Notes: a model not told the origin generated them from the sequence alone. Positions 34,068-59,028 are shown, numbered from the stretch's first letter. The stretch: 64,000 nt of DNA from Bacilli bacterium (GCA_022653695.1 JALCSW010000001.1:53979-117978), one strand, 5' to 3'. Numbers and translations: made by a program.

Positions 34068-34081
34068 TGAAAGCGCTTTCG
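34068..34081. promoter_or_regulatory. cre-like palindrome TGAAAGCGCTTTCG upstream of -35
   Basis: Matches the CcpA cre consensus TGWAARCGYTWNCW at 13/14 positions. Same motif recurs at 38978, 39002 and 47037. Confidence 0.5.
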
Positions 34082-34089
34082 GTTTTTTG

Positions 34090-34118
34090 TTGACGGACGG
34101 GGGAAGCGTTCCTATAAT
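34090..34118 (+). promoter_or_regulatory. consensus sigma-A promoter TTGACG-17-TATAAT
   Basis: -35 at 34090-34095, -10 at 34113-34118, exact 17-nt spacer. Confidence 0.65.
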
Positions 34119-34125
34119 AGTGATG

Positions 34126-34145
34126 TTAGGAAATCGGTTTCCTAA
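34126..34145. promoter_or_regulatory. LacI-family-type operator TTAGGAAATCGGTTTCCTAA (20-bp palindrome, central CG)
   Basis: 9-bp arms TTAGGAAAT / GTTTCCTAA (one mismatch) around CG. Lies 8 nt after the -10 box. Related copies at 38906, 46966 and 47096. Confidence 0.6.
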
Positions 34146-34247
34146 AATGATGAGCCGGTAAGGCAATCAATCAGGAAATCAAGTTAAAGTCGGTATTTGA
34201 GGTTCATGCCCTTGAATATAAAACCCACAATTTGGGAGGGAAAAAGT

Positions 34248-35786: not shown

Positions 35787-35876
35787 TCACCCTGAGGATC
35801 ATACGCCATCATAAGGGGCGAAGCATCGCGATTGCTTTGCCCCTATTCAATGCCATCGCCAAATAAGGAAAAACCC

Positions 35877-38905: not shown

Positions 38906-38925
38906 AAGCGAAATCGGTTTCCTAA
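38906..38925. promoter_or_regulatory. degenerate copy of the LacI-type operator (perfect right half GTTTCCTAA)
   Basis: AAGCGAAATCGGTTTCCTAA, flanked by GTTAAC...GTTAAC. Confidence 0.4.
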
Positions 38926-38977
38926 AAAACGTTAGTTAACATCGAAGAAACAAGTAACCATCAGCATTTTCAAATTG

Positions 38978-39015
38978 TGAAAGCGCTTATATTTTTGATT
39001 GCGAAAGCGCTTTCC
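38978..39015. promoter_or_regulatory. two tandem cre-like sites (TGAAAGCGCTTATA and CGAAAGCGCTTTCC)
   Basis: Both contain the GAAAGCGCTT core. The second overlaps the -35/spacer of the downstream promoter. Confidence 0.45.
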
Positions 39016-39027
39016 TTAATCTATACT
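38999..39027 (+). promoter_or_regulatory. sigma-A promoter TTGCGA-17-TATACT
   Basis: -35 at 38999-39004, -10 at 39022-39027. AGGAGG SD before ATG 39077. Confidence 0.5.
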
Positions 39028-39076
39028 TGCTTTGTATTTATGGGAGAAGTGCGTTCTCCCTTACAGGAGGGTTTCT

Positions 39077-41005
39077 ATGCATAAGTCCAAGAAACTGTTT
39101 ACGATTTTCTCTAGCGCGGCGCTGGCTTTGACGGTCGGCGGAGTCGCCATTGGCCTCAGCGGCGGCAACGTCAAAGCCGCCAACGCCGATGAAGTTGCCA
39201 CGATCGGTTCGCTAAGCGACTTCAACAGCGTGTTCGATGGAGGCGCCGGAAGTTCTGCCAAAGATATCACTTTGACGGCCGATATCGATTTGGGTGGCAT
39301 GTCTTTCGGGACAGCCAAAATGGCCGGTGAATATACCGGAACATTTGACGGGGGCGGTCACAAAATAACCAATTTCCTTGCCGGCGGAAATGCCGGTTTG
39401 TTCAACATTTCGTCGGGAACCATCAAGAATTTGACGCTTGAGTGCACCGCTAACGCCAATGGAACCTCGCCTCTGGCGTTCCAAAATAACGGCTCTGTCA
39501 CCGGGTGTCACGTCGTCGAAACGGTTTCATCCGCCTTAAACACCCTTTCAGGCTATTTCTGCAACGGAAGCGGAACGATCTCTGACTCCTACGCCCATTA
39601 CATATTCAACGCCTCCTGCCAAGGAACGAATACCGTATTTCCGTTCTATCGCGAAGGCTCGCCGACGATCACCGACTCCTATTACACAAAGAGCGACGCA
39701 ACGACCGGGATAACCATTACAGCAAACGTGGGAGCCAGCGAAACGGACCAGGTTTGCGGCGTGTCCGTTGCCGACAAAACCATAACCATGGGCGCCGATG
39801 AAACTCTTTCGGCTTCCACATATGGGTCGACGTATTCCGCGATCGCGTGGACGATTGACGATACGGGAATTGCGACGCTATCGAACGAAACGACCGACAC
39901 GGTTACCATTTCGGGCGTCTCCGCCGGCACCGCGACGCTGACATGCACCTATACATCGACTTTGGGAAGTTTCGCGAGTTCCTCGACCATCACCGTGCAA
40001 AACAGCTCGGCCGTTTCGGACGTAAGCGTTTCCCCCACATCAACATCTCTGTACACCGGGGCCACCACAACCCTCACCGCTACCCTGACCGGCAACGTTT
40101 ATGATCACGTCGCTTGGACGAGCGATGACGAAAGCCATGCGACCGTCGCGGGAGACGGCTTAACCGCCACCGTGACCGGCGTCGCCGCCGGCCCTGCCAA
40201 TGTCGCGATAACTGTTTACGATTCAAGCAACGGCGTCTTGGCGAGCGCCTCCTGCGCCGTGACAGTCAACGCCGCCGTGACGTTCGACTTCTACCTCGCC
40301 GTCAACTCGTCCTTCTCTTGGACCGCCGAATCGGCCATCTTCTACGGAGGCGGAATCACCGAAACCTCCTTCGATATGACCAATACCGGATATACTCTTC
40401 GCTTAAACGACGCCACCAACTTGAACACGCTGACCGAATATGACCTTTACTATCTGAACGTCAACGCTTCGGCCCTCGGAATGGTTGGCGCGACTGGCGT
40501 TTATGTCCAGGCCGGCAACGGTCAGAACCCCGGACGCTGGGGCTCGGGTTATAACGTCGATTCCTACACCAACGGTTTTGCGCTCTACACTCCTTTCGCT
40601 TCATCGGGCGCCCTTCAGAGCATCTGCACGGGTAGCGGGGCCAAAGAAGGCATCGATTGGGTCAACGGGCTTACCGATTGGAGAGACGGCAACGATTCGA
40701 TCTGCTATCTCCTCGATGGGGCGAACGAAACCAAGAAAACGACCATCCTCGATTCCTATAATGCCCTTTCGGGCGACGCGAAGACCTTCTTAGGGACCCT
40801 CACCGACGATACCGCCGATTACGATTCGACTTACGGCACCACGATTTCCTATCTAAGCGCCGCCGGAAGTCCCGCCATCGCCGTATTCTCCGAACTCCCC
40901 GACACCAAGTACACCGTTCTCTTCGTCACCGTCGGCATCGCCGCGTTGGCGGTCGGCGGTTACTTCATCGTCAGAGCCACGAAGAAAAGGAAAGCCAAAG
41001 ACTGA
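39077..41005 (+). CDS. surface protein with GLUG-motif domain, Big_2 Ig-like repeats and C-terminal TM anchor
   Basis: About 642 aa from MHKSKKLF. Signal peptide. GLUG-like segment FDGGGHKITNF...GLFNISSGTIKNLTLE. Two or more BIG2-like repeats (TISGVSAGTATLTCTY, TATVTGVAAGPANVAITV). C-terminus LPDTKYTVLFVTVGIAALAVGGYFIVRATKKRKAKD. Confidence 0.55.
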   Translation: MHKSKKLFTIFSSAALALTVGGVAIGLSGGNVKAANADEVATIGSLSDFNSVFDGGAGSSAKDITLTADIDLGGMSFGTAKMAGEYTGTFDGGGHKITNFLAGGNAGLFNISSGTIKNLTLECTANANGTSPLAFQNNGSVTGCHVVETVSSALNTLSGYFCNGSGTISDSYAHYIFNASCQGTNTVFPFYREGSPTITDSYYTKSDATTGITITANVGASETDQVCGVSVADKTITMGADETLSASTYGSTYSAIAWTIDDTGIATLSNETTDTVTISGVSAGTATLTCTYTSTLGSFASSSTITVQNSSAVSDVSVSPTSTSLYTGATTTLTATLTGNVYDHVAWTSDDESHATVAGDGLTATVTGVAAGPANVAITVYDSSNGVLASASCAVTVNAAVTFDFYLAVNSSFSWTAESAIFYGGGITETSFDMTNTGYTLRLNDATNLNTLTEYDLYYLNVNASALGMVGATGVYVQAGNGQNPGRWGSGYNVDSYTNGFALYTPFASSGALQSICTGSGAKEGIDWVNGLTDWRDGNDSICYLLDGANETKKTTILDSYNALSGDAKTFLGTLTDDTADYDSTYGTTISYLSAAGSPAIAVFSELPDTKYTVLFVTVGIAALAVGGYFIVRATKKRKAKD

Positions 41006-41022
41006 TTAGCCGCCCTTAATGG

Positions 41023-41059
41023 AAGGCGTTCCTCATTCAAAAAAGGGGAGCGCCTTTTT
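41023..41059 (+). terminator. rho-independent terminator
   Basis: AGGCGTTCC-loop-GGAGCGCCT (one G-U pair) followed by TTTTT. Confidence 0.65.
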
Positions 41060-41100: not shown

Positions 41101-41595
41101 ATGAAACAATCCCTCATCTCGCTAGAAGACCTAAGGGCCGCCGATCGAAAGAACGCCTGGCTCATCGCTTTCGAGGTTTTTCTCGTCATGGCGATGGGGG
41201 CCGCCACCGCTTTGATATACGTTTTCCAAAGCAGGGCCACCCAAACCATTTTCATTTGGGTAGGATCAATCATCTATATCCTCGTTCTAACCGTTTTTTT
41301 CTATGTTCTTTTCATGATGATCCGACCGCTAGGCAGTTACCGCCGCTTCATGAGGAAGGCCCTCTCCAAACCGCGTCCGCTCAATGACGTCAGCGTCCTT
41401 TCCTTGAGCAAGGAGAGGGAGACCTACAAGGGTTTTCCTTGCTTTTCCCTCCGCGTCAGGGAACTCGACGAAGGCACCGTCTGGAACGTCCGTTACGAAT
41501 CGTCGGCGCCGATCGACGTCACGATAGGCGGCGTCTACGAAATCGAAACCTACGATGAGGTCCTCTGCGCGATAAAAGAGGAGAAACGGCGATGA
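41101..41595 (+). CDS. hypothetical membrane protein (2 TM plus ~80-aa soluble domain)
   Basis: 164 aa. First gene of a chain of five ORFs all joined by ATGA overlaps. Confidence 0.45.
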   Translation: MKQSLISLEDLRAADRKNAWLIAFEVFLVMAMGAATALIYVFQSRATQTIFIWVGSIIYILVLTVFFYVLFMMIRPLGSYRRFMRKALSKPRPLNDVSVLSLSKERETYKGFPCFSLRVRELDEGTVWNVRYESSAPIDVTIGGVYEIETYDEVLCAIKEEKRR

Positions 41596-42257
41596 AGGTA
41601 GGCGTCACAAAAGAGAAAATCGGCGACTTCTTCACGAGTTATGGCTGGGTCGAACTGCTTCTTGCCATCGTGAGCGTGGTGGCCTGGTACTGGCCCATAA
41701 CCGCCATCGACCAAATCAGGAGCGACGAACGAATCAACTTCTTCATCGAATGCTATGGTTTCAAAGACGAGGAATTCCAAAACCAATTGCGGGATGATTT
41801 GGCCGATAGCGGGGTCGAGGAGGTCAACGTCTACTCTTATTCCCCGAGCGATTCCCTCATCAACAGCTATTACGAGGCCTTCGGAACCGAAAGCGACTTC
41901 CTCTTTCTCTTATCAAGCGACCTCGACACGATGTTCGAAAACCCCAACGCCGCTCTTCTTAGCGAATTCCTCGCTTGGGGGGACGCGCTGAAAGCGGAAG
42001 TCATGCCAAACTTCTCCGCCGCTTCGTTCTACGAGGTCGAAGGGGTCCCTTACGCCCTCAAGGTTTATGACCCTGAAGATGCCTCCTATAGCCAGAGGAT
42101 CGAGGATTTCGCCCTTTTCCATACCGAGATGAAGAGCGAGGCCGTCTACCTCCTCCTTAACGCGGCGACCCCCAATTTCGGTTCCTACGCCGACGGATCG
42201 GCGACCTCCAACGCCGTAGCGGCCTTATCTATGTTCATCGAAAGGTATTACTTATGA
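41592..42257 (+). CDS. hypothetical membrane-anchored protein (1 TM plus acidic ~190-aa extracytoplasmic domain)
   Basis: 221 aa, ATGA overlap on both sides. No recognisable family. Confidence 0.45.
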   Translation: MKVGVTKEKIGDFFTSYGWVELLLAIVSVVAWYWPITAIDQIRSDERINFFIECYGFKDEEFQNQLRDDLADSGVEEVNVYSYSPSDSLINSYYEAFGTESDFLFLLSSDLDTMFENPNAALLSEFLAWGDALKAEVMPNFSAASFYEVEGVPYALKVYDPEDASYSQRIEDFALFHTEMKSEAVYLLLNAATPNFGSYADGSATSNAVAALSMFIERYYL

Positions 42258-43072
42258 GAGAACGCAAACGAAAAGTCGAAAGAACGGAGGATGGCAACTT
42301 GCCCCGCACCCGCTGGCAATTGCTCAAAGACACGCTCCGCTGGCGGTTTTGGTCCCTCGCCGTCATCAGCCTCATGGCCATCGTTTTTTACGTCCCCTCT
42401 TTTGCTTGGATGAGTTTTGCCAGCATGTCCGGCCTCTTAGAAGCCGACAACTTCTACTCGATTTTGCTCACCCACGCGGTGGATGCCCTTTTGCTAGGCG
42501 TATTCGGCCTTGGGCAAGCCGGCCTTTTCTATTTCCTGAAGCGGCTCGCGTGGGGGGAAGGGGCCAGCATCCCCTCCGATTTTTTCGAAGGCATCAAGAA
42601 AAATTGGAAAGCCTTTTTCCTTCTTTTCTTCGTCATGGGGCTCCTCTATGCCGTTTTGGAGCTTAATCTGGCCTCCATCGCCAATTCCGGATGGGATTCC
42701 GTTGCCATCGGGGCCGTGAGTGGGGTGAGTTACGCCGTTTTCTTCCTTTTTGTGGCCGCCATCCTCATAACCCTCGTCGAAAGCGTCATCTACAGCTCCC
42801 GCCTCTTCTCCCTCTTCGTCAACGCGTGGCGGTTCCTCATCGGGGCTTTCCTCACGAACGTCCCCGTTTTCTTGGCCTATTTGCTGCCCCTCATCCTTTA
42901 CGAATCCATCCCCAGCTACATCGCTCAGTGGGTCGCCATTCTCTTCGAGGGGGTCTTCTATCTAGGTTTCAGCGGTTTTTTCCTCACCATCTATTGCCAC
43001 TCCCTTTTCGATAAGACCATCAACAAACGCCAATTCCCGGAAATCGTCCGCAAGGGGCTCCGCAAAGAATGA
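42254..43072 (+). CDS. YesL-like (DUF624 family) polytopic membrane protein
   Basis: 272 aa, ~6 TM. DUF624-like N-region (...FFEGIKKNWKAFF...) resembling B. subtilis YesL-type proteins found beside sugar ABC systems. Confidence 0.5.
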   Translation: MRERKRKVERTEDGNLPRTRWQLLKDTLRWRFWSLAVISLMAIVFYVPSFAWMSFASMSGLLEADNFYSILLTHAVDALLLGVFGLGQAGLFYFLKRLAWGEGASIPSDFFEGIKKNWKAFFLLFFVMGLLYAVLELNLASIANSGWDSVAIGAVSGVSYAVFFLFVAAILITLVESVIYSSRLFSLFVNAWRFLIGAFLTNVPVFLAYLLPLILYESIPSYIAQWVAILFEGVFYLGFSGFFLTIYCHSLFDKTINKRQFPEIVRKGLRKE

Positions 43073-44385
43073 GATACGAATTCCGCCTCAGCCAAATCGG
43101 CGGCCCTTATTGGGAGAAAAGAAGCCTGTCCGAAGGCGAAGGCGAGCCGATTTCCTTCGATCCGTCGAAGCCTCAGCAAACCATCATCGGCTTCGGGGGC
43201 GCCTTCACGGAAGCCGCCGCCCATGTCTACGCGTCGATGAGCCCCGCGCTGAAAAGGCAGACGATCGCCCTTTGCTTTGGGGAAGACGGGCTCCGTTACA
43301 ACCTCGGAAGGACGACGATCGGCTCCTGCGACTTCTCGCTCTCCCAATACGATTACGCGAGGAAAGACGACCTTTCGGACTTTTCCTTGCGCCACGACGA
43401 AAAGGAAATCATCCCCTTTCTTAAGGACGCCGAAAAAGCAAGGCCGCTGCGCCTATTGGCTTCTTCATGGTCGCCTCCCGCCAAATGGAAAACGAGCGGA
43501 AGCAAACTTCAGGGCGGGCGCTTGAAAAAGGACTGTTACGGCATTTACGCCGACTATCTCGCCAAATATGTCGAAGCCATGGCGGAAAACGGCCTGCCGA
43601 TCGAATTTCTCACCCCCCAAAACGAGCCGCTGGCCGCCCAAACGTGGGAAAGCTGCCTCTATGGACCCGCGGAGGAGGCCAAACTGATACTCGAACTGAA
43701 AAAGCGGATGCCGAACATCAAAATCCTGGCCTATGACCACAACCGAGACAAACTGTGGGACCGGGAAAAGGACATCTTCCGGAAACGCGAGGTCAAGGAG
43801 GCCGTCCACGGAATGGCCTACCACTGGTACTTCCCAGGTGGTCACGAGGAAATCGCCAAATGCCTGGCCTCATTCCCCGACAAGCCCCTCATCCAAACCG
43901 AAAGCTGCGTTGAGTTGCTGAACCTTAATCGCGCGGATCCCGCCGCCGCGATCGGGAACCCAGAAGGCATGAGGCGTTATGCCAAAGACCGCCTCGAGGA
44001 TCTTCGAAGCGGATCGTCCGGCTTCATCGACTGGAACCTTCTGCTCGACCTGAAAGGGGGGCCAAATCACGCCGGCAATTACTGCGAGGCGCCCCTCATG
44101 AGCGATGGGACGCGCTTGCTCATCAACCCTTCCTACTACGCGATCAAGCACCTTTCGCGTTTTATCGATCCGAATTCGCGGCTCATCGCCTCGGCTTTCC
44201 CTATGGGGATCGTCGGGGCGGCTTTCCTGAACCCCGATGGCGGCCTTTCCCTCGTGATGCTTAACGAAGGAGAGGGGAAAGCGGTTTCTTTATTCGTTGA
44301 AAACCACCAGTGTTCATGCTATCTTAATGGAAATTCCATCTGTTCAATACGCATATGGCAAGCCTTGAAGCAAACTGAAAAATGA
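43069..44385 (+). CDS. GH30-family glycoside hydrolase (beta-1,6-glucanase/glucosylceramidase-like), cytoplasmic
   Basis: 438 aa. GH30 motifs IGFGGAFTEAA, ASSWSPPAKWKTSG, TPQNEP (acid/base), DHNRD, nucleophile region QTESCV. The last ~25 codons run through the lacI promoter and look low-complexity. Confidence 0.75.
   Translation: MRYEFRLSQIGGPYWEKRSLSEGEGEPISFDPSKPQQTIIGFGGAFTEAAAHVYASMSPALKRQTIALCFGEDGLRYNLGRTTIGSCDFSLSQYDYARKDDLSDFSLRHDEKEIIPFLKDAEKARPLRLLASSWSPPAKWKTSGSKLQGGRLKKDCYGIYADYLAKYVEAMAENGLPIEFLTPQNEPLAAQTWESCLYGPAEEAKLILELKKRMPNIKILAYDHNRDKLWDREKDIFRKREVKEAVHGMAYHWYFPGGHEEIAKCLASFPDKPLIQTESCVELLNLNRADPAAAIGNPEGMRRYAKDRLEDLRSGSSGFIDWNLLLDLKGGPNHAGNYCEAPLMSDGTRLLINPSYYAIKHLSRFIDPNSRLIASAFPMGIVGAAFLNPDGGLSLVMLNEGEGKAVSLFVENHQCSCYLNGNSICSIRIWQALKQTEK
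44297..44339 (+). promoter_or_regulatory. sigma-A promoter TTGAAA-17-TATCTT followed by perfect 13-bp palindrome ATGGAAATTCCAT
   Basis: -35 at 44297-44302, -10 at 44320-44325, palindrome at 44327-44339. Lies inside the 3' end of the GH30 ORF, just upstream of the lacI-family gene. Confidence 0.45.
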
Positions 44386-45395
44386 TCACCATTTACGACA
44401 TCGCCAAAAAAGCCGGCGTCTCGCCCAGCACCGTCAGCAAAGTCATCAACGATTACAAAGCCATCCCCGAGGAAACGAAAGAAAAAGTCCATCGTATCAT
44501 GGATGAGATGAACTACATTCCCAACACCGGCGCCAAAGCCTTAAGCAGCCGCAAGAGTTACAACGTTGGGATCTTAGCCTACTTCGGAATGAAAATATCG
44601 CCTTTCAAGCACACTCTTTTCACCGATATCCTCGATTCCTTCCAAACCGAGATGAACGCTCAGAACTACGACCTTCTTTTCATCTCCCATAACGTGGCCG
44701 GCCAAAACGGCTCTTTCTACAAAAACTGCATCTCCCGCGACGTCGCCGGCGTCTTGCTTTTCGGCAACACCAACAACGAGGAAATGCAAGAAGTCATCCA
44801 CAGTTCCATCCCCAAGGTCTGCTTCGATTACGTGGGCGGGGAAATGACGAGCGTCCATAGCGACAACTACGCCAAAATGAAGGAACTCACGAAACGGCTC
44901 ATCGAGATGGGCCACCGCAACATCTTCTTCGTCCACGGCGAACCCAACGGGGTCACCTCCGAACGTATCGCGGGTTTTAAGGACGCTCTCAAGGAAGCGG
45001 GCATCCCCCTTAAGGACTCGATGCTCCAAGAAAGCATGTATCTCGACAACGAGCACATCCGCTCCCTCACGACCGATATCTTGCGGCAACCTCGCGATGT
45101 GCCTACCGCCATCATGTACCCTGACGACTATTCGGCCATCCAGGGCATCGCCGCCATCAAAAAAGAAGGCCTTTCCTGCCCTAAGGACATCTCGGTCACG
45201 GGCTTCGACGGCATATTCTCGGGGCAAGTGACGAACCCCCGTCTCACCACGGTAAAGCAAAATACCGAGGAAATAGGGCAAACGCTCGCCAAATCGCTCA
45301 TCGAGTGCATCGAGAGAAAGAGAGTTGAGCCTCGTTCGATTGAGATCAAGGCAACCATTCTTAGCGGGGAGAGCACCGGCCCCGCCCGAAAGTAA
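44382..45395 (+). CDS. LacI-family transcriptional regulator
   Basis: 337 aa. N-terminal HTH (MITIYDIAKKAGVSPSTVSKVIN) and periplasmic-binding-protein-like sugar-binding core. Confidence 0.85.
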   Translation: MITIYDIAKKAGVSPSTVSKVINDYKAIPEETKEKVHRIMDEMNYIPNTGAKALSSRKSYNVGILAYFGMKISPFKHTLFTDILDSFQTEMNAQNYDLLFISHNVAGQNGSFYKNCISRDVAGVLLFGNTNNEEMQEVIHSSIPKVCFDYVGGEMTSVHSDNYAKMKELTKRLIEMGHRNIFFVHGEPNGVTSERIAGFKDALKEAGIPLKDSMLQESMYLDNEHIRSLTTDILRQPRDVPTAIMYPDDYSAIQGIAAIKKEGLSCPKDISVTGFDGIFSGQVTNPRLTTVKQNTEEIGQTLAKSLIECIERKRVEPRSIEIKATILSGESTGPARK

Positions 45396-45402
45396 GAAAA
45401 GA

Positions 45403-45440
45403 AAACCCGTTTCGGTCCGCAAGACGAAACGGGTTTTTAA
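45403..45440. terminator. bidirectional rho-independent terminator
   Basis: AAACCCGTTTCG-loop-CGAAACGGGTTT flanked by A and T runs, between convergent genes. Confidence 0.75.
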
Positions 45441-46965: not shown

Positions 46966-46985
46966 TTGGGAAATCGGTTTCTCTA
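46966..46985. promoter_or_regulatory. LacI-type operator copy (TTGGGAAATCGGTTTCTCTAA) downstream of the GH16 gene promoter on the minus strand
   Basis: Left arm and CG centre conserved. Right arm has a 1-nt insertion. Confidence 0.45.
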
Positions 46986-46990
46986 ATCAA

Positions 46991-47019
46991 AATATAACTT
47001 GTATTCGGTCCTTTTACAA
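46991..47019 (-). promoter_or_regulatory. sigma-A promoter for the GH16 gene (minus strand TTGTAA-17-TATATT)
   Basis: Reverse complement of 46991-47019 gives TTGTAA ... TATATT with a 17-nt spacer. Confidence 0.5.
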
Positions 47020-47036
47020 CATGCGATTTGAAAAAG

Positions 47037-47050
47037 TGAAAGCGCTTCCT
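47037..47050. promoter_or_regulatory. cre-like site TGAAAGCGCTTCCT (perfect match to TGWAARCGYTWNCW) between divergent promoters
   Basis: 14/14 match to the cre consensus. Placed between the divergent GH16 and SBP promoters. Confidence 0.55.
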
Positions 47051-47058
47051 GAATTTCG

Positions 47059-47087
47059 TTGACGGGAAGCCGTCCCATCCATATAAT
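47059..47087 (+). promoter_or_regulatory. consensus sigma-A promoter TTGACG-17-TATAAT for the sugar ABC operon
   Basis: -35 at 47059-47064, -10 at 47082-47087. Identical architecture to the 34090 promoter. Confidence 0.65.
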
Positions 47088-47095
47088 GAGATCGG

Positions 47096-47115
47096 TTAGG
47101 AAATCGATTTCTTAA
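47096..47115. promoter_or_regulatory. LacI-type operator TTAGGAAATCGATTTCTTAA
   Basis: 20-bp palindrome with ATCGAT centre and one arm mismatch, 8 nt after the -10 box. Confidence 0.6.
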
Positions 47116-47136: not shown

Positions 47137-48612
47137 ATGAGTAAAAAACATGGATTGTCCGCCTTTATCATGGGATTGGCCCTAACGGCTTCTTTGGCCG
47201 CTTGCGGCGATACGAGCGGAGCGGCGAACTCCGGAGCCGGACGCAGTTCCAACGGCGGTTCGAACGATGAATTGTGGATCTGTGTCTACGATGGCGGATA
47301 TGGAACCCAATGGTTGAAGGACGTCGGCGCGGAATTCACCGCGGCGACCGGCATCAGCGTCCATTATGATGCCGACACCTCTCTTCTCGACCGCATCGAA
47401 AGCGCCCTCCGAGACGGGGGCGATTACGATCTCTATATGTCGCACGGCCTCAACTGGCAAACCTACGCCGCCAACGGCTGGCTCGCCTCGCTTGACGACG
47501 TTTATTCAAGCCCGGTCGAAGGCTTCAACGGCACTTTTGCCGACCGCGTGATCAATGGGGCCGGCGATTTCAGCAAAACGATCGGAAAAGACAACGCGGA
47601 GCATTATTACAAAGCCTGCTACACCCAAGGAGCCGGCGGCTTCGTCTATAACATGAACATGTTCGAGAAAAACGGCTGGAGCGTCCCGAAGACTTATGCC
47701 GATCTGGTCAACCTTTGCGGCACGATCAATGCCGCGGGGCTTAAGAACGCCCTCAATAAACCCGTCAGGCCTTTCGCCTGGAGCGGAAGAGACCGCGAGT
47801 ATTACTGGGACTATCCGCTATTCGAATGGTGGGCTCAGTTAGCCGGCGTCGACAAAGTCGAAACCGTCCATAAGTACCTCGGTCCGACCGGGCAGTACTC
47901 CGACGGCTACGAAATGTATAACCCCAACACCTATTACAAGGAGTTCATGCAGGCTTACGATATGTGGTACGACCTCATCGGAAACAATAGCGGCAATTAT
48001 TGCACGAACGACTATTCGGCGACCCTAAGCACCGCCAAAGCCGAATTCATCACCGGACAAGCCGCGATGATCCCTTACGCCCAATGGGCCAAATACGAAC
48101 TCGAGGAGCTCAACGACGGGCCGCTCGATTTCAACATCGCCATGATGCCGACCCCGAAGGCCACCGCTTCCTCGATCGACGTCAACTACCGCGTCGGCTT
48201 CGGCGATTCCATGATCGTCCCTTCCAACGCCGTCAACGTGAGCGCCGCCAAGAAATTCATCAACTTCATGGCTACCGAACAAGCCTGCAAGACTTTTGTC
48301 AAGGATAGCCGCGGCGCCTTCCTCGCCTTCAACTATGGCGACATCGACATGAGCGACATCGAAAAGGACGATCCTTATATCAAGAGCGTTCATCAGAAAG
48401 TCAATTTCACGGGTATCAGCGACGCTTCGACGAACCCCATCACCTATCGCAACATCAACTGCGTCATGCCGTGGGTCCTTAACAAGTACTACTACAAGAG
48501 TTGCTGCAGCGATCCCTCGAACTTCACCGCTTCCAAAGTCGGCGCCGAGGTTTACGCGACCGCCAAAGAAAACTGGGCCACCTGGCTCCGCAACGCCTCC
48601 CTTAGCGACTAA
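47137..48612 (+). CDS. sugar ABC transporter substrate-binding lipoprotein (SBP family 1)
   Basis: 491 aa. Lipobox LAACGD. Extracellular solute-binding family-1 fold. AAGGAGAAGAG SD. Confidence 0.85.
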   Translation: MSKKHGLSAFIMGLALTASLAACGDTSGAANSGAGRSSNGGSNDELWICVYDGGYGTQWLKDVGAEFTAATGISVHYDADTSLLDRIESALRDGGDYDLYMSHGLNWQTYAANGWLASLDDVYSSPVEGFNGTFADRVINGAGDFSKTIGKDNAEHYYKACYTQGAGGFVYNMNMFEKNGWSVPKTYADLVNLCGTINAAGLKNALNKPVRPFAWSGRDREYYWDYPLFEWWAQLAGVDKVETVHKYLGPTGQYSDGYEMYNPNTYYKEFMQAYDMWYDLIGNNSGNYCTNDYSATLSTAKAEFITGQAAMIPYAQWAKYELEELNDGPLDFNIAMMPTPKATASSIDVNYRVGFGDSMIVPSNAVNVSAAKKFINFMATEQACKTFVKDSRGAFLAFNYGDIDMSDIEKDDPYIKSVHQKVNFTGISDASTNPITYRNINCVMPWVLNKYYYKSCCSDPSNFTASKVGAEVYATAKENWATWLRNASLSD

Positions 48613-48621
48613 GGTGCCCTT

Positions 48622-49641
48622 ATGACCAAACTCGCGGCGCCGGTAATCGAAGCAAAAGTGGCCCCCGCTCCCAAAAAGCGGAAGGCCCACAAGGGGAACT
48701 GGAAGACATATCTCTTCGTCTTTCTCATGCTTCTTTACCCGCTCGCGCAGTTCTGCCTCATGTGGTTCGGGGTCAATATCAATTCGATTTTCCTGACCTT
48801 CAAATCCATTGATCCGGCCACGAACGTCCTTACGTGGAATCTTTCGATTCCCTATCTTTGGGAGCAGGAAGGCGATGCGTTTGGGGTGTTCTTCTACAAT
48901 TACAAGACCCTGTTCCTCAGCCTTACGACCAAAACGGTTAGCGATATGTTCCTATCATCCTTCGCCTATTTGGTCATCTCTTGCTTCGTCACCCTCCCGA
49001 TCGCTCTCTTCATGAGCTATTTCATCTTCAAAAAGATTATCGGGGCCTCCTTTTACAAAACCATCTTTTTCATCCCTTCGATCTTCCCGCTGTTCATCCT
49101 TTGCCTCGTGTTCTCGCTGTCTTTGTCCTCAAGCGGGGGCATCATCCCGGGGATACTTAGCAAAATGGGAATCGATTACGGCGATTTCTTCAACAACATC
49201 TTCCTCGGCGAAAACGTCGGCGACAGCGCTTCATGGGCCGTGTGGGTCTTCTTCCTTTGGAGCGGGCTCGGTTACGACATCATCCTTTTGACCGCCGGCA
49301 TGAGCCGCATTCCGCGGGATATTTTGGAAAGCTGCCGCATGGATGGCGTGAGTCCGATGAAAGAGTTTTTCCGGATCATCGTACCCCTCACTTGGCCCAC
49401 CATAACCACCCTTTTCATCTTCGGCATGATGGCCATCTTCAGCACCACCTTCCAGCCTTTCTTCCTTACGAGCGGCCGCTACGCGACCATGACGATCGGC
49501 TTGCAGATATACCAGTCGAGCCAAGGAACGGCCTTGCAAACGCCGGCCACTTTAGGTCTCTTCTGCTCATTGGTGGCCGCTCCGGTCATCATCGCGACGC
49601 GCAACGGACTCAACCGCTGCTTCAAGAACGTGGGGTTTTGA
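48622..49641 (+). CDS. carbohydrate ABC transporter permease (MalF/UgpA-like)
   Basis: 339 aa, 6 TM. EAA-loop region (SRIPRDILESCRMDG). Confidence 0.85.
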   Translation: MTKLAAPVIEAKVAPAPKKRKAHKGNWKTYLFVFLMLLYPLAQFCLMWFGVNINSIFLTFKSIDPATNVLTWNLSIPYLWEQEGDAFGVFFYNYKTLFLSLTTKTVSDMFLSSFAYLVISCFVTLPIALFMSYFIFKKIIGASFYKTIFFIPSIFPLFILCLVFSLSLSSSGGIIPGILSKMGIDYGDFFNNIFLGENVGDSASWAVWVFFLWSGLGYDIILLTAGMSRIPRDILESCRMDGVSPMKEFFRIIVPLTWPTITTLFIFGMMAIFSTTFQPFFLTSGRYATMTIGLQIYQSSQGTALQTPATLGLFCSLVAAPVIIATRNGLNRCFKNVGF

Positions 49642-49644
49642 TTT

Positions 49645-50592
49645 ATGGGTCCAGCCACTTGGTTTAAAAAGAAATTCCGCGCTCGGCGCGAGGAGTCGCG
49701 CCAAACTTCCTACGAGAGAAAGCACGACATCCTTTATAAGCGCAAAGGAGGCGAGAAAGTTCTCTTCATCGTCATGGGGGTTATCTTCGTCGTCTTCGCG
49801 ATCACCTTCATTTTCCCCTTCCTTTGGATCCTCATGAATTCCTTCAAGGGCAAACTCGAGTTCGCCATGGATTTCATGGGTTGGCCGGTGGCCTGGAACT
49901 GGAGCAATTTCGCCAAGGCCGTCACGTTCCAAAGCGCCGAAACGCATAACTACACCGTCTTCCAAATGATGGGCATGAGCTTGCTCGTCGCCGGCGGAGG
50001 AACCCTCGCCACGGTCATCACTTCCAGCTGCGCGGCCTACGTGGTCGCCAAATACAAGTTCCCCGGGCGCGGCCTCATCTTCAGCGTCGTCATCTTCTCG
50101 ATGATCATCCCGATCGTCGGTTCCTTGCCTTCTCAGATCCAACTTATGCGGGCGATGGGCCTCGATAACACCGTCATCGGTTTGATATTCCTTTATTCAG
50201 GCGGCTTCGGCAGCAATTTCCTGCTCCTATACGGTTTCTTCAAAAACCTCAGTTGGACCTACGTCGAGGCGGCCAAGATCGATGGGGCCAGCGACTTCCG
50301 CATCTTCCTGCAGATCATCCTTCCGATGGCCAAAGGCCCGATCACCGCGGTCGGCATCCTCTCGCTCATCGGACTATGGAACGATTACTTCAACCCATCC
50401 ATCTTCCTTTCCAAACAACCCACGATCGCGGTCGGCATCTATTACATGCAGAACGCGATGCTCGAGACGAAAGGCAACTACCCAATGTTCTTCGCCACCG
50501 TCATCATCACCCTGATTCCGATTCTGCTGGTCTTCCTTTGCTTCAGCAAAACCATCATGGAGAACACCTCCGTCGGTGGCTTAAAAGGATAA
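49645..50592 (+). CDS. carbohydrate ABC transporter permease (MalG/UgpE-like)
   Basis: 315 aa, 6 TM. EAA motif (YVEAAKIDGASDFRIF). Confidence 0.85.
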   Translation: MGPATWFKKKFRARREESRQTSYERKHDILYKRKGGEKVLFIVMGVIFVVFAITFIFPFLWILMNSFKGKLEFAMDFMGWPVAWNWSNFAKAVTFQSAETHNYTVFQMMGMSLLVAGGGTLATVITSSCAAYVVAKYKFPGRGLIFSVVIFSMIIPIVGSLPSQIQLMRAMGLDNTVIGLIFLYSGGFGSNFLLLYGFFKNLSWTYVEAAKIDGASDFRIFLQIILPMAKGPITAVGILSLIGLWNDYFNPSIFLSKQPTIAVGIYYMQNAMLETKGNYPMFFATVIITLIPILLVFLCFSKTIMENTSVGGLKG

Positions 50593-50620: not shown

Positions 50621-52090
50621 ATGAAAAAAGTTACAAAAAACGCTACGTTCGCTTTGCTAGTCGCCTTCGCTCTCGTCGGGGCCGCCTCGTGTTCCTGCAA
50701 AAGCGTCGGTACCTCGGGGGAATCCGCTGGAACGTCCGGCGGAAACTCCGGATCGCCCACCCCGAGCGCCCAGGTCTTCAAAGACAATAAGGCCTATTAC
50801 GACACAAGCGCGGACGCTTATGACCTGAGCGTGGAAACGGGCCTTACCGGAGAGGCGACTTCCGTCAAAGTCGGGCGGAGCGAAGCCAGCGCGGATCAGT
50901 ACTCACTCGACGGCAACGGGGTCTTGACCCTTTCCGGGTCCTTCTTGTCAAGCCTTAACGCCGGCGAGAAGGAAGTCTCCCTCGTCGCGGGAGGCAAGAA
51001 AGCCACCATCGACCTCTTCATGGCCACCAAAGTCATCAAAACCGCCGACGAGTTTCAGGCCATCAACGACGATTTGACCGGTTATTACGTCCTTGGCAAC
51101 GACATCGACCTGTCCTCGATTCAAAACTTCGAGCCTTTGGGCAAGTATTGGAGCGAAACGGACACCAACAACGCTTATTTCCATGGCATCCTCGAGGGCA
51201 ACGGTCACACGATCGAGAACGCCAACGTCCTCTATAGCGACAGCGTCGCCACCAATTACAACGTCTATAGCAACAGCGGGAATTACAAGTTCGACTTAAG
51301 CTGCCACTCGGCCGGTGACAACATCGGCCTCTTCCAGATCATTGGCAGCTCCGGCGTCGTCCGCGATTGCAATTTCAAGAACATCAAAGTGCGGGGCCGC
51401 ACGATTTGCGGGGTCATCGCCGGCAACTGCTCCGGAACGGTCTACAACTGCCATATCGACAGCTCCTGCTCCGTTGAGATGGGCACCCACTTCTACGACG
51501 ACGACTGCAATATGGGCGGGGCCTTCGGCATCGTGGCCGGAACCGGGAACGTGTACAACCTCGTCAGCGAGGTCACGAGCCTGACCCTTGGGGCGACCGG
51601 TTCGAGCACCGTCAACGGGGTCTCGGTCGAAAAAGCCGGCATCTTCTTGGACTGGGATGACGATTACATCGGCCAAACCGGCAACGGCTGGGACCATGGC
51701 GAAGGCACCGACAACCCCTGGTGGAAGTTCTGCGGGGTCGACAAAGTCAACTCCAGCAGCGTCGCTTATACCGACAGCAACGGCGCCCCCACCAACGGCG
51801 AATACGCTTTCGTCGGCAAGTGCTGGGGCAACGTCAGCGACTGCGTCGCGAAAGCCTTCAACGTCGTGCCGATGGACGGATCGGCGAGACCGATTTATTT
51901 CGGGCAAACCCATCTCGGAGCCAACAAACCCACGAGCGGAGAGAGCGATCTCGGATCGCTGACCGACGATGTCCTTCTCGATTCCTCCGGCCTTAAGACG
52001 GCTTCCAACTACGCAAGCTTCGATAACGAGGTCTGGAACATCCAAGACGGCTCGGTCCCAAGCCTCAACGCCTATTACGAATTCGAATAA
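50621..52090 (+). CDS. surface lipoprotein with GLUG-motif beta-helix-like domain
   Basis: 489 aa. Lipobox ASCSC. GLUG-like motifs (FHGILEGNGHTIENANV; NIGLFQIIGSSGVVRDCNFKNIKV). Many Gly/Asn-rich turns. Confidence 0.5.
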   Translation: MKKVTKNATFALLVAFALVGAASCSCKSVGTSGESAGTSGGNSGSPTPSAQVFKDNKAYYDTSADAYDLSVETGLTGEATSVKVGRSEASADQYSLDGNGVLTLSGSFLSSLNAGEKEVSLVAGGKKATIDLFMATKVIKTADEFQAINDDLTGYYVLGNDIDLSSIQNFEPLGKYWSETDTNNAYFHGILEGNGHTIENANVLYSDSVATNYNVYSNSGNYKFDLSCHSAGDNIGLFQIIGSSGVVRDCNFKNIKVRGRTICGVIAGNCSGTVYNCHIDSSCSVEMGTHFYDDDCNMGGAFGIVAGTGNVYNLVSEVTSLTLGATGSSTVNGVSVEKAGIFLDWDDDYIGQTGNGWDHGEGTDNPWWKFCGVDKVNSSSVAYTDSNGAPTNGEYAFVGKCWGNVSDCVAKAFNVVPMDGSARPIYFGQTHLGANKPTSGESDLGSLTDDVLLDSSGLKTASNYASFDNEVWNIQDGSVPSLNAYYEFE

Positions 52091-52140: not shown

Positions 52141-55100
52141 ATGGTGAAATACGGATATAAAAACGATTCCTTTATCATTAAGGATTATCAGAAGGCGAAG
52201 ACTTTCGCTTCTTTTCTCCCGGCCGTCGCCGGGGTCGACGGAAAGCCTTTGTGGGCTTTCTACGCGAACGTCGGGCAAGCCATGGGTGGGTTCGGAGTGA
52301 CTTCGAAAGACACTCCGATAACCCCCTTTGACAGCGCCAACCTCGCCTATCAGAACATCCCAATCCGTTCCTTCCGAACGTTTTTGAAGGTCAACGGCAA
52401 AACATACGCGCCTTTCTTCCCGGGCAACGGGGGAAAAGACGACATGGCGATCCGCCGCAGCGACTTCTCAATCAGCGAGAAAGGCCCCGGCTACGCCATG
52501 AAAATCACTTATTTCACCGTCCCCCACCAAAACTATGCGGCGTTGATCCGCAAGGTAACCTACAAGAACCTCGGCAAGAGTGCGGCGAAATTCGTCGCCC
52601 TCGACGGCGTTCCCGTCTTTTTCCCGCATGGGCTCAGCAACGTCTGCTATAAGGAACTCGTTTCCCTCATGGCGGCCTATTGTCAGGTTTATGGCCTCAA
52701 GGACAGGCGGCCGTTCATAAAATTCAAGACCTCGACCGGGGACAACTCGGTCGTCAAGGAAGCGGTGTCCGGCAACGGTTTCTTCGCCAAAGACGAAGAG
52801 GGTCGCCTCTTGCCCGATATCGTCGATCCTTCATCCGTCTTTGGGGACGACCTCTCGCTTCTTTCGGCCGCCCCGTTTGTCGAGAAAAGCCCAAAGGCCT
52901 TTTTATCGGGCGATCAGCAAACCGAAAACAAACTCCCTTGCGCTTTCTCGCTTTTCGAGAGAAAACTGCTTCCCGACGAAGAAGCCTCGGTCTATGAAGT
53001 CTATGGCATGTTCGACAGCGTCGAAGCTTTTCACGCGGCTGAGAAAGGCCTGAGGGTCGCTCACATCGAGGAACTCCAAAAGGAAAACGCCAAATTGATC
53101 GAAGAGTTGCTCGCCCCGGCGAGCTGCCACACGGCGAACCCCCTTTTCGACGATTACCTCAAGCAAAGTTATCTCGATAACGATTTGCGTGGGGGTTTCC
53201 CCGTCCTGCTCGACGACAAGAAAGACGGGCAGGTCTACTACGTCTATGGCCGCAAGCACGGCGACATGGAGCGTGACTACAACGCTTTTAACATCCCCTC
53301 CCGCTACTATAGTTCGGGCCCGGGCAATTTCCGCGACGTCAACCAAAACCGCCGCACCGACCTTTTCTTCCATCCTTTCGTGGGCGATTACAACATTCGC
53401 CTCTTCTTTAACCTCATCCAAGCCGATGGACAGAACCCCCTCAACGTCAAGCCGGAGGTTTTTTGCCTTAACAAAGGGGCGGATCTTTCCTTTCTAGGCA
53501 AGGAGACGAAAGACGAACGACTGCTAAAAATCGCCGCCAAATATGAGCCAAGCGACCTTTACGCCTACCTCAAGGACACGATGGGACTCACCAACGAAAA
53601 GGCCAACGAAATCCTCGCCGACTTCCTTAGCGTCTCCCACCAAGAAATAGAAGCCAACTTCGCGGAAGGGTATTGGGTCGACCATTGGACGTACAACGTC
53701 GACCTGCTCGAGAATTACAGCGCCATTTTCCCCGATAAGGAGGAATCGCTCCTCTTCGCGCCCGGCTATCGCTACTTCTATAGCCCCGTCTACGTCGAAC
53801 CGCGCAGCGAGAAAACGTGCCTGCTCAGCGACGGAAGGATCCGCCAATACGGCGCCATCGACCTTAAAAAACTCAAGGACGTCTGCGAGAAAAAGCATTT
53901 CGACATCAAGAAAACGGCATGGCTCGCCGACAAAAACGGGAAAGAGATAAACGTCGATCTGGCCTCGAAGATCATCAATCTCGCCCTCGTCAAATTCAGC
54001 GCCCTCGACACCCAGCAGATGGGCATCGAGATGGAATGCGAGAAACCAGGCTGGAACGACGCGATGAACGGCTTGCCTGGGCTCTTTTCAAGCGGCCTTT
54101 CGGAATCCGTCGAACTTCTGCGCCTCGTCCGTTACGCCCGGAAGCATCTGTCCCCATTCGGGAAACGCGATCTTTCCTTCCTTGAGGAACAATACGCCCT
54201 TTACGAGGTCATCAAGGAAAAGCTACCCTCGCTCATGAAAGGCGAACTCGCCCCCTTTTCCTATTGGGACGCGGTCACATCGGCGCGCGAAAAGATGCGC
54301 CTCGCCCTCAAGGACCGAGCCGAAGGAAACGTCATCAAGGTCTCCGTCTCTGAAATCCTTCCCCTTCTGGATAGCATGGACGAAACCCTTGAGAAAGGGA
54401 TCCAAAAGGCCAAAGCGATCGGAAACGGCATTCTCCCCAGTTACCTCATTTACGACGTCGCGTCCTACGAGAAAACCGACCATGTCAACCACCTTGGCTT
54501 CCTAACCGTCAAGGCGACCTCTTTCTCTTTACGGACGATCCCGCCCTTCCTCGAGGCTAGCGCGCGCGCCCTTAAACTCGGCCCGAAAACCATTACTCAT
54601 GAGGATTGCCTTCGCATCAAGCAAAGCGACCTCTACGACAAGACGTTCCGTTTCTACAAGACCTGCTCCTCTCTCGATAAGGCCCCCTTTGAAATCGGCC
54701 GCGTCCACGCTTTCACGAAAGGCTGGCTGGAGCGGGAATGCAACTTCCTCCATATGTCCTATAAATATATGCTTGGCCTATTGACCGCCGGCTATTACGA
54801 GGATTTCTATAAGGAAATCAAAACCAATTTCGTGGTTTTCATGGACCCGAAGGTTTACGGGCGCAGCCCCATCGAGGCTTCCAGTTTCGTCGTTCCCAGT
54901 TGCAACCCCGACGCGAGCAAACGCGGCGAGGGTTTCTTCGCCCGCCTCACGGGGGCCAACGCCGAGTTCCTCAACATGTACATGCTGATGTTCGCGGGAC
55001 CCACCATTTTCGAAATGGATCATGGGAAACTCGTTTTCTCCCTTTCGCCGAAGCTTTCCAAGGATTTCTTCGACCAAAAGGACGAGGTTTCCTTCCTTCT

Positions 55101-57276: not shown

Positions 57277-59028
57277 ATGTTCACCAAAAAGAAAGTTCTC
57301 GCCCCCACCAAAAAGGAAATAGAGGGGCTTTATGCCCTCGAGGATGAGGTAAGCGACCAAAACGAAGCCCGCAAGCGAAAGCTCCGCCGCGAAAAGGAGG
57401 CGCTCCGGCACAGCAAGTTCCTTTCGCGCTCCCACGGGCAAGAGGAAATCCAAAAAGAGGACGAGCGCGTCAAGGCTTTCGAGCGGAAAGAGGAAGCGAT
57501 GCGCCTCGCCTACGAAAAAGAACGGCTCGAGGCTCATGAGGTCCGGCGCGCCGAGGAAGCGGCGAAAAGGAAAAACGAGGAAAGCCTCAAGGCTTCCCTC
57601 AGCCCCGAGCTATACGCTAGGCGCCACGAAGAAGCGGCCCGCGAAGCCCGCCACGCCTTCAAAAGGGCGCAGGAACGGTTGCTTTTGAGGAAAGAGGACG
57701 CCGACATCGCCGACCGCAATCTCGTTTACCGCGACGTGAACGATTACGAAACCGTCCACCGGAAGGAGGCGAAAAAAGCCCCCAAAGGCGTTTTCCTCAG
57801 TTGCCAGCGGGTCAGCAAAATCTATTCGAATCGCGTTGAAGCGGTCCATGATTTCTCCCTTGACGTCAATAAGGGCGACTTCATCGTTCTGGTCGGCCCC
57901 TCGGGATGCGGCAAATCGACGACGCTCCGCATGATTGCCGGGCTTGAGGATATCACGACGGGCGACCTTTATATCGATGGCCGATACGCCAACAAACTCG
58001 AGCCAAAGGAACGCGGGGTCGCGATGGTCTTCCAAAACTACGCCCTCTATCCCCATATGTCGGTCTTCGAAAATATGGCCTTCGGCTTATCGGGCTTGCC
58101 GAAAGAGGAGATCAAAGCCCGTATCAAGGCGGCCGCCGACATGCTTCAGATCGCCGAATTCCTCGACCGTAAGCCTACGGCCCTCTCCGGCGGCCAGTGC
58201 CAGCGCGTGGCCCTCGGGCGCGCCGTGGTAAGGAAGAGCCCGATTTTTCTGCTCGACGAGCCTCTCAGCAACCTCGACGCCAAACTCCGCGTCCAGATGC
58301 GAAGCGAGCTCATCAAACTCCATGAAAGCCTTGGCAACACGATGATTTACGTCACCCACGACCAGACCGAGGCCATGACCATGGCGACCCGCATCGTCGT
58401 CATGAAACGCGGCCTCATCCAGCAGGTCGGCACCCCTTCGGAGGTCTATCGGAAACCCGCCAACGTTTTCGTGGCCACCTTCATCGGCAGCCCAACCATG
58501 AACGTCATCGAAGCCGTCTACAAGAAAGGGCGCGTCCGTTTTTCCGACGGCCAGTCGATCGCCCTTCCCAAGAGCGAGGTCAAATCCCATGACGACTTCT
58601 ACGCGGCGCGCAAGGCGCTTCTTGAGAAAGAAATCGGGGATTTGCGGGATGAGGAGAGGAAACGCGCGGAAGCTAAGGCCTCCAAAGTCCGCTTCCTGCC
58701 GCTCGACTTCCGGAAGGAAATCTCTTCGCGCGAAGAGGAACTCGATTCCATCGCCGACATCATCAAAACGGGCGAGCATCAGATTTTCTTCGGGATCCGC
58801 CCCGAAAACATCGAACTGGGAACGAAGGAAAGCGCCCTCAAGAGCGACATCGTTTTCACCGAACTATTGGGCGCCGACTACCATCTGCACCTTGCCTTCA
58901 ACGGCGGCGAGATCATCGCCAAAGTCCCAGCGGGGGATAAGCCCATCGAAAAAGGCCCGATCCGGATTTCCTTCAAACCCGGACGGAGCCATCTCTTCGA
59001 CTTCGAAAGCGAACTCCGCATCATCTAA
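57277..59028 (+). CDS. msmK: sugar ABC transporter ATP-binding protein (MsmK/MalK-like) with ~170-aa charged N-terminal extension
   Basis: 583 aa. Walker [10 protein letters not shown] only at ~aa 205. Q-loop, signature [14 protein letters not shown], Walker B FLLDEP, H-loop, then MalK-type C-terminal TOBE domain with a KE-rich insertion. Confidence 0.75.

Follow-up and report, generated by a model that had tools for sequence, protein, structure and literature searches.

Within a 64,000-nucleotide stretch of DNA from a Bacilli bacterium (GCA_022653695.1, JALCSW010000001.1:53979-117978; the whole stretch is called the window below, and positions are counted from its first letter), five genes on the plus strand follow one another between positions 41101 and 45395 so tightly that each start codon overlaps the preceding stop codon. 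What do the three uncharacterised membrane proteins at the head of this chain do, and with which of their neighbours do they work? These proteins, P1 (41101-41595, 164 residues), P2 (41592-42257, 221 residues) and P3 (42254-43072, 272 residues), are followed by a glycoside hydrolase of family GH30 (43069-44385, 438 residues) and a regulator of the LacI family (44382-45395, 337 residues). The initial annotation of the window proposed that the trio might be a membrane module serving either the glucan transporter of the locus or the LacI regulator itself. Our analysis tips the balance, by a modest amount, towards P1, P2 and P3 being an accessory subcomplex of the CUT1-type oligosaccharide ATP-binding cassette (ABC) importer encoded in the same locus, that is, a MusI-type component with two extra subunits. 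This reading is preferred because the CUT1 importer, and not GH30 or LacI, is the constant partner of the trio, and because P3 is remotely MusI-like.

The chain has the anatomy of an operon. All four junctions are ATGA stop/start overlaps of 4 bp, as had been annotated, and the complete four-overlap chain occurs outside the window only in L007, a metagenome-assembled genome (MAG) that is 91% identical. Among public genomes, a MAG under the label 'Bacilli bacterium' is the nearest, with protein identities of 89-91%. ATGA overlaps are frequent in this genome generally, but the chain is locally unusual all the same. In a crude gene set, 8 of the 35 co-directional junctions in the window overlap by 4 bp and four of these eight lie within the chain; elsewhere in the window the rate is only 4 of 31, so that a run of four is beyond chance expectation. 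Conservation of the overlaps in related genomes is uneven: the P1/P2 overlap is kept almost everywhere among the related loci, whereas the overlap of GH30 with LacI is restricted to the window and L007.

Gene neighbourhoods were annotated with profile hidden Markov models of P1, P2 and P3 in 12 contig look-ups and two collection scans; fetching of related loci by alignment yielded loci of the close clade only. All members come from uncultured organisms, including Bacilli of the gut and of anaerobic digesters that live on beta-glucans and other glycans, and P1 and P2 carry no database name other than 'hypothetical protein'. With the exception of L014, all loci of sufficient length have the order P1, P2, P3 (or a fusion and then P3), with junctions that overlap or nearly abut. 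The fusions (P0154, P0165, P0178 and P0181; 367-387 residues) begin with a half that has the architecture of P1 and end with the P2 domain, and the P1 profile detects three of the four (E = 1.5e-7, 1.1e-6 and 5e-4 when 181 proteins were searched). Four lineages thus hold P1 and P2 as one protein, and the order of the fusion agrees with the predicted topologies, in which the C terminus of P1 and then the N terminus of P2 lie inside the cell.

The partners of the trio are less uniform than the trio itself. In the beta-glucan clade the gene order is (GH81-Big2)-P1-P2-(MazG-like)-P3-(GH30)-LacI-GH16-solute-binding protein (SBP)-permeases, with the GH16 gene on the opposite strand and parentheses around genes that are not constant. 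Five loci are devoted to other glycans: L016 with GH106/rhamnosidase and an AraC regulator, L017 with GH2/arabinofuranosidase, L012 with GH67, L006 with GH20, and L020. In all five the gene immediately before the trio encodes a UgpC/MalK-type ATPase, the junctions measure -8 to +54 bp, and in L012 and L017 it is flanked by the ATPase gene on one side and the SBP-permease-permease genes on the other. The ATPase-P1-P2-P3 order is also found in two beta-glucan contexts. GH30 is missing from the trio loci outside the beta-glucan group; GH30 and LacI accompany the trio only within it. The gene context typical of the MusI family (a CUT1 SBP, two BPD_transp_1 permeases and a MalK-type ATPase) is present in the window and in L001, L004, L010-L012, L016-L018 and L023-L031. 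Thus, the enzymes and the regulator beside the trio change and the ABC importer genes persist, and the link to sugar importers spans glycan specificities and P2 identities down to ~20%. Examination of co-occurrence therefore bears out a conserved trio and is in keeping with a module for the transporter, and does not show a constant association with GH30 or LacI.

Two features of these neighbourhoods deserve separate mention. The ATPases of L016 (6768-7532), L017 (7206-7946), L006 (3-719) and L020 (1-522) are MalK/UgpC-type proteins reduced to the nucleotide-binding domain (NBD; 246-254 residues), and each of them directly precedes P1 or a P1-P2 fusion. Such NBD-only ATPases are unusual among CUT1 systems. 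Also, a gene for a MazG-like nucleotide pyrophosphohydrolase of 108 residues lies between P2 and P3 in L001 (10687-11013), L004 (10704-11030), L008, L022 and L029. This insertion belongs to one sub-clade, is absent from the window, and seems an odd passenger for an operon of membrane proteins.

DUF624/MusI proteins are widespread near sugar ABC importers in Gram-positive bacteria, and P3 is plausibly a remote relative of them, as judged from its sequence. The protein has six transmembrane (TM) segments with an alternating pattern of lysine and arginine that places both termini inside, and its conserved polar motifs (LPxxR..D..R, E-G....DF..G.K.N and FD..IN...P....KG) all fall on the cytoplasmic side of the predicted topology. 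The YesL/DUF624 likeness named in the initial annotation holds for a remote polytopic relative and does not reach family membership: P3 matches PF04854 (DUF624/YesL) over residues 78-138 with 19.8 bits (E = 8.8e-4), below the gathering threshold of 24.2, and the same model gave no match at E <= 0.1 to six P3 relatives. Against the NCBIfam model MusI_fam (NF052431) P3 scores 18.1 bits (E = 0.0019) and its orthologues score 30.3 bits (L010, E = 3.3e-7) and 29.0 bits (L011, E = 8.5e-7), both over model positions 35-188 of 194. The curated cut-off is 160 bits.

MusI of the Corynebacterium glutamicum maltose importer MusEFGK2I (Pfam DUF624/YesL) is thus the closest named counterpart of P3. Both are polytopic membrane proteins encoded with a CUT1 importer, and most of the length of the MusI model is covered by the matches of P3 and its relatives (E = 2e-3 to 3e-7). 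They differ in that scores of 18-30 bits stand against the cut-off of 160, and that P3 proteins have 270-320 residues compared with a model length of 194. In addition, P3 always occurs with P1 and P2, which are sometimes fused, and neither of these is listed where PMC13008276 describes the Mus system. That description, which cites Henrich et al. 2013, presents MusI as an essential membrane component of the MusEFGK2I importer whose role is unexplained. A literature search on DUF624 and YesL found no functional study.

P1 is composed of a short N-terminal strand, a TM hairpin (~residues 20-75) and a six-stranded OB-fold barrel (residues 94-160). Its AlphaFold 2 model, built with 20 homologues, is confident (pLDDT 88.5) and has helices at residues 8-41 and 45-89. 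In a Foldseek comparison with the PDB, OB folds came out on top, with E-values of only ~0.03; the best compact match is the DUF2500 protein of PDB entry 3q6c (TMt 0.80, root mean square deviation 2.1 Å). Lysine and arginine counts place both termini inside in all family members, and the OB domain is accordingly predicted to be probably cytoplasmic. Neither Pfam nor NCBIfam contains a family that P1 matches above threshold, and a sequence search of the PDB with the P1 family found nothing significant. Sub-threshold matches to DUF4131 (PF13567) occur in 13 of 20 family members and span both the TM and the OB parts (in one example, residues 21-149 align with model positions 5-127 of 165), with a best score of 22.3 bits compared with a gathering threshold of 31.6. 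Scans of whole-family alignments against Pfam and NCBIfam otherwise gave only sub-threshold matches that were driven by the TM segments.

The architecture of DUF4131, TM helices followed by an OB-fold barrel, is nevertheless present in P1 according to the model and the Foldseek matches. The TM and OB part at the N terminus of ComEC, for which the OB fold of DUF4131 has been described (PMC5031224), and the DUF2500 proteins (PDB 3q6c and 3rd4) resemble P1 in having a small OB barrel after TM helices. In contrast to ComEC, P1 is a stand-alone protein of 160 residues from sugar loci, with no DNA-uptake channel part and no nucleic-acid context, and its sequence identity to DUF2500 is ~10%. Two other assignments were considered and rejected. 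A bacterial PH domain (bPH/YdbT-like), guessed from the combination of two TM helices and a small beta-domain, is ruled out by the OB fold of the model and its structural matches. The suggestion that the OB domain is a split-off regulatory domain of MalK (TOBE/OB_MalK) was not borne out, since hhalign comparisons with the C-terminal domains of three locus ATPases were negative; P1 also co-occurs with ATPases that retain their regulatory domain (in the window and L019), which counts against it as well, and the idea survives only as an element of the extended importer reading given below.

P2 starts with a conserved cytoplasmic motif (D12, F14, G18, W19), continues with one TM helix and ends in an acidic alpha/beta domain of ~175 residues that is probably outside the cell, as the predicted fold and topology suggest. 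An exhaustive profile search defines a P2 family of 177 clusters at 50% identity, nearly all of them full-length proteins of 200-225 residues. No Pfam, NCBIfam or PDB sequence match was obtained (Pfam gave none for any of the 13 members scanned), and a profile search of the PDB likewise found nothing. The AlphaFold 2 model of P2 is moderately confident (pLDDT 68.8), and Foldseek found no structural matches for it other than weak, partial ones to the SBPs of sugar ABC importers (E = 0.013-0.1 over ~120 columns). On this basis the P2 ectodomain may be one SBP-like lobe. That it is a diverged copy of the SBP of the locus was rejected, as the hhalign probability is 0.2%. The AlphaFold models thus gave a confident fold for the 164-residue protein and a more tentative one for the 221-residue protein, and together with the family searches they support the annotated picture of two membrane-anchored proteins with one soluble domain each and no recognisable family.

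The likeness of P2 to class II SBPs (NgtS, 5swa; the sophoro-oligosaccharide SBP, 5ysf; TMBP, 1eu8) lies in a beta-alpha-beta core and in a tethered domain, predicted to be outside the membrane, that a sugar-import locus encodes. However, P2 has ~175 residues in this domain, roughly one lobe, with TMq values of 0.30-0.37 (E = 0.01-0.1); its anchor is an N-terminal TM helix and not a lipid, and it shares no sequence or profile similarity with these proteins. The locus that holds P2 already encodes a full-length SBP. A lone, distant P2-like protein of 247 residues (E = 1e-13 to the P2 profile) is encoded in L014 (1644-2387) without P1 or P3, and the P2 fold may have uses beyond sugar loci.

How, then, could the trio act as an accessory subcomplex of the importer? 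We infer a topology, a physical complex and a role from these features. P1, P2 and P3 would form a single membrane module with nine TM helices in total, and its partner would be the importer composed of the SBP encoded at 47137, the permeases at 48622 and 49645 and the MalK-type ATPase at 57277. If MusI, without which the maltose importer MusEFGK2 does not work, is taken as a guide, assembly, stability or control of the transporter would depend on the module. The P2 ectodomain would lie beside the lipoprotein SBP and the entrance of the permeases, and the OB domain of P1 and the loops of P3 would adjoin the ATPase dimer. GH30 and LacI would be passengers of the operon, and the ATGA chain would be the outcome of operon compaction and translational coupling.

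Several observations weigh against this assignment to the importer. In the window, the trio is separated by 4 kb from the SBP/permease operon and by 14 kb from the ATPase gene, and it stands directly behind a surface-protein gene. P3 falls far short of the curated cut-offs for MusI and DUF624, the model of P2 is only moderately confident, and the SBP likeness of P2 is weak (E of at least 0.01, with the negative hhalign result for the SBP of the locus). The P2-like gene of L014 sits between genes for an aminoacyl-tRNA synthetase and an aminotransferase. Finally, the sample of contexts is small, at about a dozen independent arrangements, all from metagenomic contigs of uncultured Bacilli or Clostridia-like organisms.

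An extended form of the importer reading is that the trio is a hitherto unrecognised device by which oligosaccharide ABC importers are controlled or coupled across the membrane, in which a half-SBP-like extracellular P2 domain and the cytoplasmic OB domain of P1 are joined through the MusI-like P3 and docked on the MalK-type ATPase dimer, in some lineages replacing a lost C-terminal regulatory domain. We regard this as unlikely. Transport would then be gated from outside, or the SBP held at the permease, and the first mechanistic handle on MusI/DUF624 function would be at hand. The MsmX/MsmK-type shared ATPases of Firmicutes CUT1 systems offer a comparison, as they too are MalK-type proteins that are encoded apart from permease genes and serve oligosaccharide importers. 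In the relatives studied here, however, the ATPase genes are coupled to the trio, and the C-terminal regulatory domain is missing in four lineages. To our knowledge, no such partner proteins have been described for MsmX or MsmK.

The recurrent ATPase-P1-P2-P3 order could also be taken to mean that the ATPase and the trio constitute a separate, unusual ABC transporter, in which P3 would serve as the membrane domain and P2 as a binding domain on a tether. This order, with overlapping junctions, is found in seven contexts; in four of the seven the ATPase is NBD-only, covering positions 1 to ~235 of the 357-position UgpC model without the regulatory domain, and the ectodomain of P2 is weakly similar to an SBP lobe. 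Such a transporter is nonetheless distinctly unlikely. The ATPases belong to the UgpC/MalK/GlcV type, whose partners are BPD_transp_1 permeases, and the loci contain no other ATPase gene for those permeases; no EAA-type coupling-loop motif was apparent when the P3 alignment was inspected by eye; the ATPase gene of the window is not next to the trio; and MusI, the nearest named relative of P3, functions beside canonical permeases where PMC13008276 describes the Mus importer. A role of the trio in anchoring, maturing or organising the glucanases and binding proteins that the locus places at the cell surface (GH81, GH16, Big_2 and lipoproteins), with the transporter uninvolved, is improbable, too. 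The position of the trio right behind the TM-anchored Big_2 gene in the beta-glucan clade, possibly on one transcript, and the predicted extracellular location of the P2 domain are what one would expect of such a role, but in L012, L016, L017, L006 and L020 the gene directly upstream encodes an ATPase and not a surface protein, and the conserved motifs of P3 and the domain of P1 are predicted to be cytoplasmic.

A sensor of glucan, in which the ectodomain of P2 senses and the OB domain of P1 signals to LacI, or in which LacI is sequestered, is very improbable indeed. Its architecture would be apt, with one domain outside and one inside the cell, LacI is translationally coupled to the chain in the window, and L018, L019, L023, L025 and L027 share the trio-GH30-LacI order, the gap between GH30 and LacI being 4-11 bp. 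The idea is weakened because the regulators vary and because repressors of the LacI family are soluble and bind directly to imported sugars: the trio is accompanied by an AraC-type regulator in L016 and has no adjacent regulator in L012 and L020 (L006 is too short to judge), and in L001, L004 and L031 LacI lies behind a spacer of 114-128 bp with an operator of its own. Pfam and NCBIfam scans of P1, P2 and P3 found no signalling domain (kinase, HAMP or anti-sigma). There is a similarly slim chance that the trio is a self-standing membrane module that merely resides in sugar operons, with the ATGA chain being plain genome compaction. Overlaps of 4 bp are indeed common in this genome, and the MazG-like insertion between P2 and P3 in several relatives implies that the operon tolerates unrelated passengers; the association with carbohydrate ABC importers, however, is repeated over different glycans and distant relatives. 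The accessory subcomplex of the importer thus remains the reading that we favour.

The locus represents a lineage in which a MusI-like protein is tied to two partners, with a predicted soluble domain on either side of the membrane and often with coupling to the ATPase gene. P1 and P2 appear, from profile searches, to be two protein families without a curated family match, in a system close to the known but unexplained MusI kind. The analysis overturns nothing; what it provides is a tractable route into the function of DUF624/MusI proteins and concrete, testable hypotheses (complex formation, a partner for the OB domain, a ligand for the ectodomain) for an accessory layer of type I ABC importers.

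The two soluble products of the chain are readily classified. GH30 matches PF02055 with 146.7 bits and PF17189 with 23.3 bits, both above the Pfam thresholds for the TIM barrel and C-terminal beta-sandwich that define the family, and its closest solved structures are SrfJ (2wnw, E = 8e-74) and glucosylceramidases; its score against the equivalog model for endo-1,6-beta-glucanase, 185.7 bits, is below the 700 required. No signal peptide was found in it, and the enzyme is predicted to be cytoplasmic, as had been annotated, and to act on imported oligosaccharide. LacI matches PF00356 (the N-terminal helix-turn-helix) with 70.1 bits and PF13377 (Peripla_BP_3, the sugar domain that resembles periplasmic binding proteins) with 97.2 bits and, as in other LacI/GalR proteins, is accompanied by palindromes at promoters. 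The junction of the two genes is a local feature. GH30 and LacI overlap because a C-terminal extension of eight residues, specific to the lineage of the window, carries GH30 into the start codon of LacI. The junction is -4 bp in the window and L007 and nowhere else; it is +4 to +11 bp in L018, L019, L023, L025 and L027, and widens to a spacer of +114 to +128 bp that carries an operator in L001, L004 and L031. GH30 is missing altogether from the beta-glucan relatives L009, L010, L011 and L024. The varying regulators, the relatives without GH30, the spacer with its own operator and the lineage-specific overlap together speak against a module that serves LacI.

Tight stoichiometric co-expression of the five proteins, which had been read from the overlaps, also exceeds what the overlaps show. 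Good Shine-Dalgarno sequences precede P2 (AAGAGGAG) and P3 (GAAAGG), and that before GH30 is poor. None that is recognisable was found before the LacI start, so that re-initiation probably yields LacI in low amounts. LacI may, in addition, retain an autoregulated internal promoter of its own, because an operator-like site GGAAAGCGGTTTCT and then a promoter-like TTGAAA-17-TATCTT (with TG) lie on the plus strand inside the 3' end of GH30 (44276..44325), ~60 bp before the LacI start codon; the equivalent sequence is conserved in L007, with the operator core GAAATCGNTTTC exact. At the other end of the chain, the 95-bp gap upstream of P1 was searched and neither an operator nor a good sigma-70 promoter was found, so the chain may be transcribed from the promoter of the upstream Big_2 surface-protein gene. 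The hairpin in this gap (41021..41058, plus strand, -21.4 kcal/mol) is a weak terminator at best, since its U-run is mostly within the stem and leaves no free U-tract. A second, stable hairpin (45401..45438, -20.6 kcal/mol) separates LacI from the convergent GH16 gene and is probably a two-way terminator that closes the chain.

The ~25 kb around the chain are a locus for the utilisation of beta-1,3/1,6-glucan. Surface lipoproteins of families GH81 and GH16 are encoded at 35832 and, on the minus strand, at 45456. The Big_2 surface protein with a C-terminal TM anchor (39032..41005, plus strand) is directly upstream of the chain, a position that is kept in relatives. The CUT1-type importer genes for the lipoprotein SBP and the two BPD_transp_1 permeases (47137..50592) and for the UgpC/MalK-type ATPase (57277..59028) are on the plus strand. 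This ATPase has a coiled-coil-like N-terminal extension of ~170 residues, rich in lysine, glutamate and arginine, before the NBD and a charged insertion within the C-terminal regulatory domain; the ATPases of relatives have 502-606 residues. Between them, the gene at 52141-55272 encodes a protein of 1043 residues without a Pfam match that is close to the solved GH161 beta-1,3-glucan phosphorylases (PDB 9qqk, E = 2.9e-198; 9h8v, E = 8.9e-197), so the locus probably breaks down imported laminari-oligosaccharides by phosphorolysis.

Other genes of the locus are less easily placed. A predicted lipoprotein of 489 residues, with a signal peptide and a cysteine lipobox, is encoded between the permease and GH161 genes (50621-52090); it gave no match in Pfam or the PDB and could be a second surface glycan-binding protein. 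A tandem pair of GH16 genes (55269-57274) also matches the fungal SKN1/KRE6 family associated with beta-glucan synthesis. The first of the pair overlaps the GH161 gene by ATGA, and the true start of the second is probably further downstream, because its longest open reading frame overlaps the first by 43 bp.

The initial annotation regarded LacI as the repressor of the locus, and the distribution of its predicted operator agrees with this. The palindrome GGAAATCGNTTTCC, likely to be the LacI operator, is found at four promoter regions (34129, 38909, 46969 and 47099) and is kept at equivalent places in relatives; the LacI-type pattern has 17 matches in the window compared with 5.5 expected by chance, the best of them at promoter regions. 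Upstream of the Big_2 gene, the operator palindrome CGAAATCGGTTTCC (38909..38922) lies between the GH81 terminator and the Big_2 promoter, and two cre-like palindromes, TGAAAGCGCTTAT and CGAAAGCGCTTTCC (38978..39015), overlap a promoter-like site at 38999-39027. The regulated promoter regions (34068-34146, 38909-39015 and 46969-47112) each couple a GGAAATCGNTTTCC palindrome with a cre-like TGAAAGCGCTTTC palindrome, and strong TTGACG-17-TATAAT promoters are present at 34090 and 47059.

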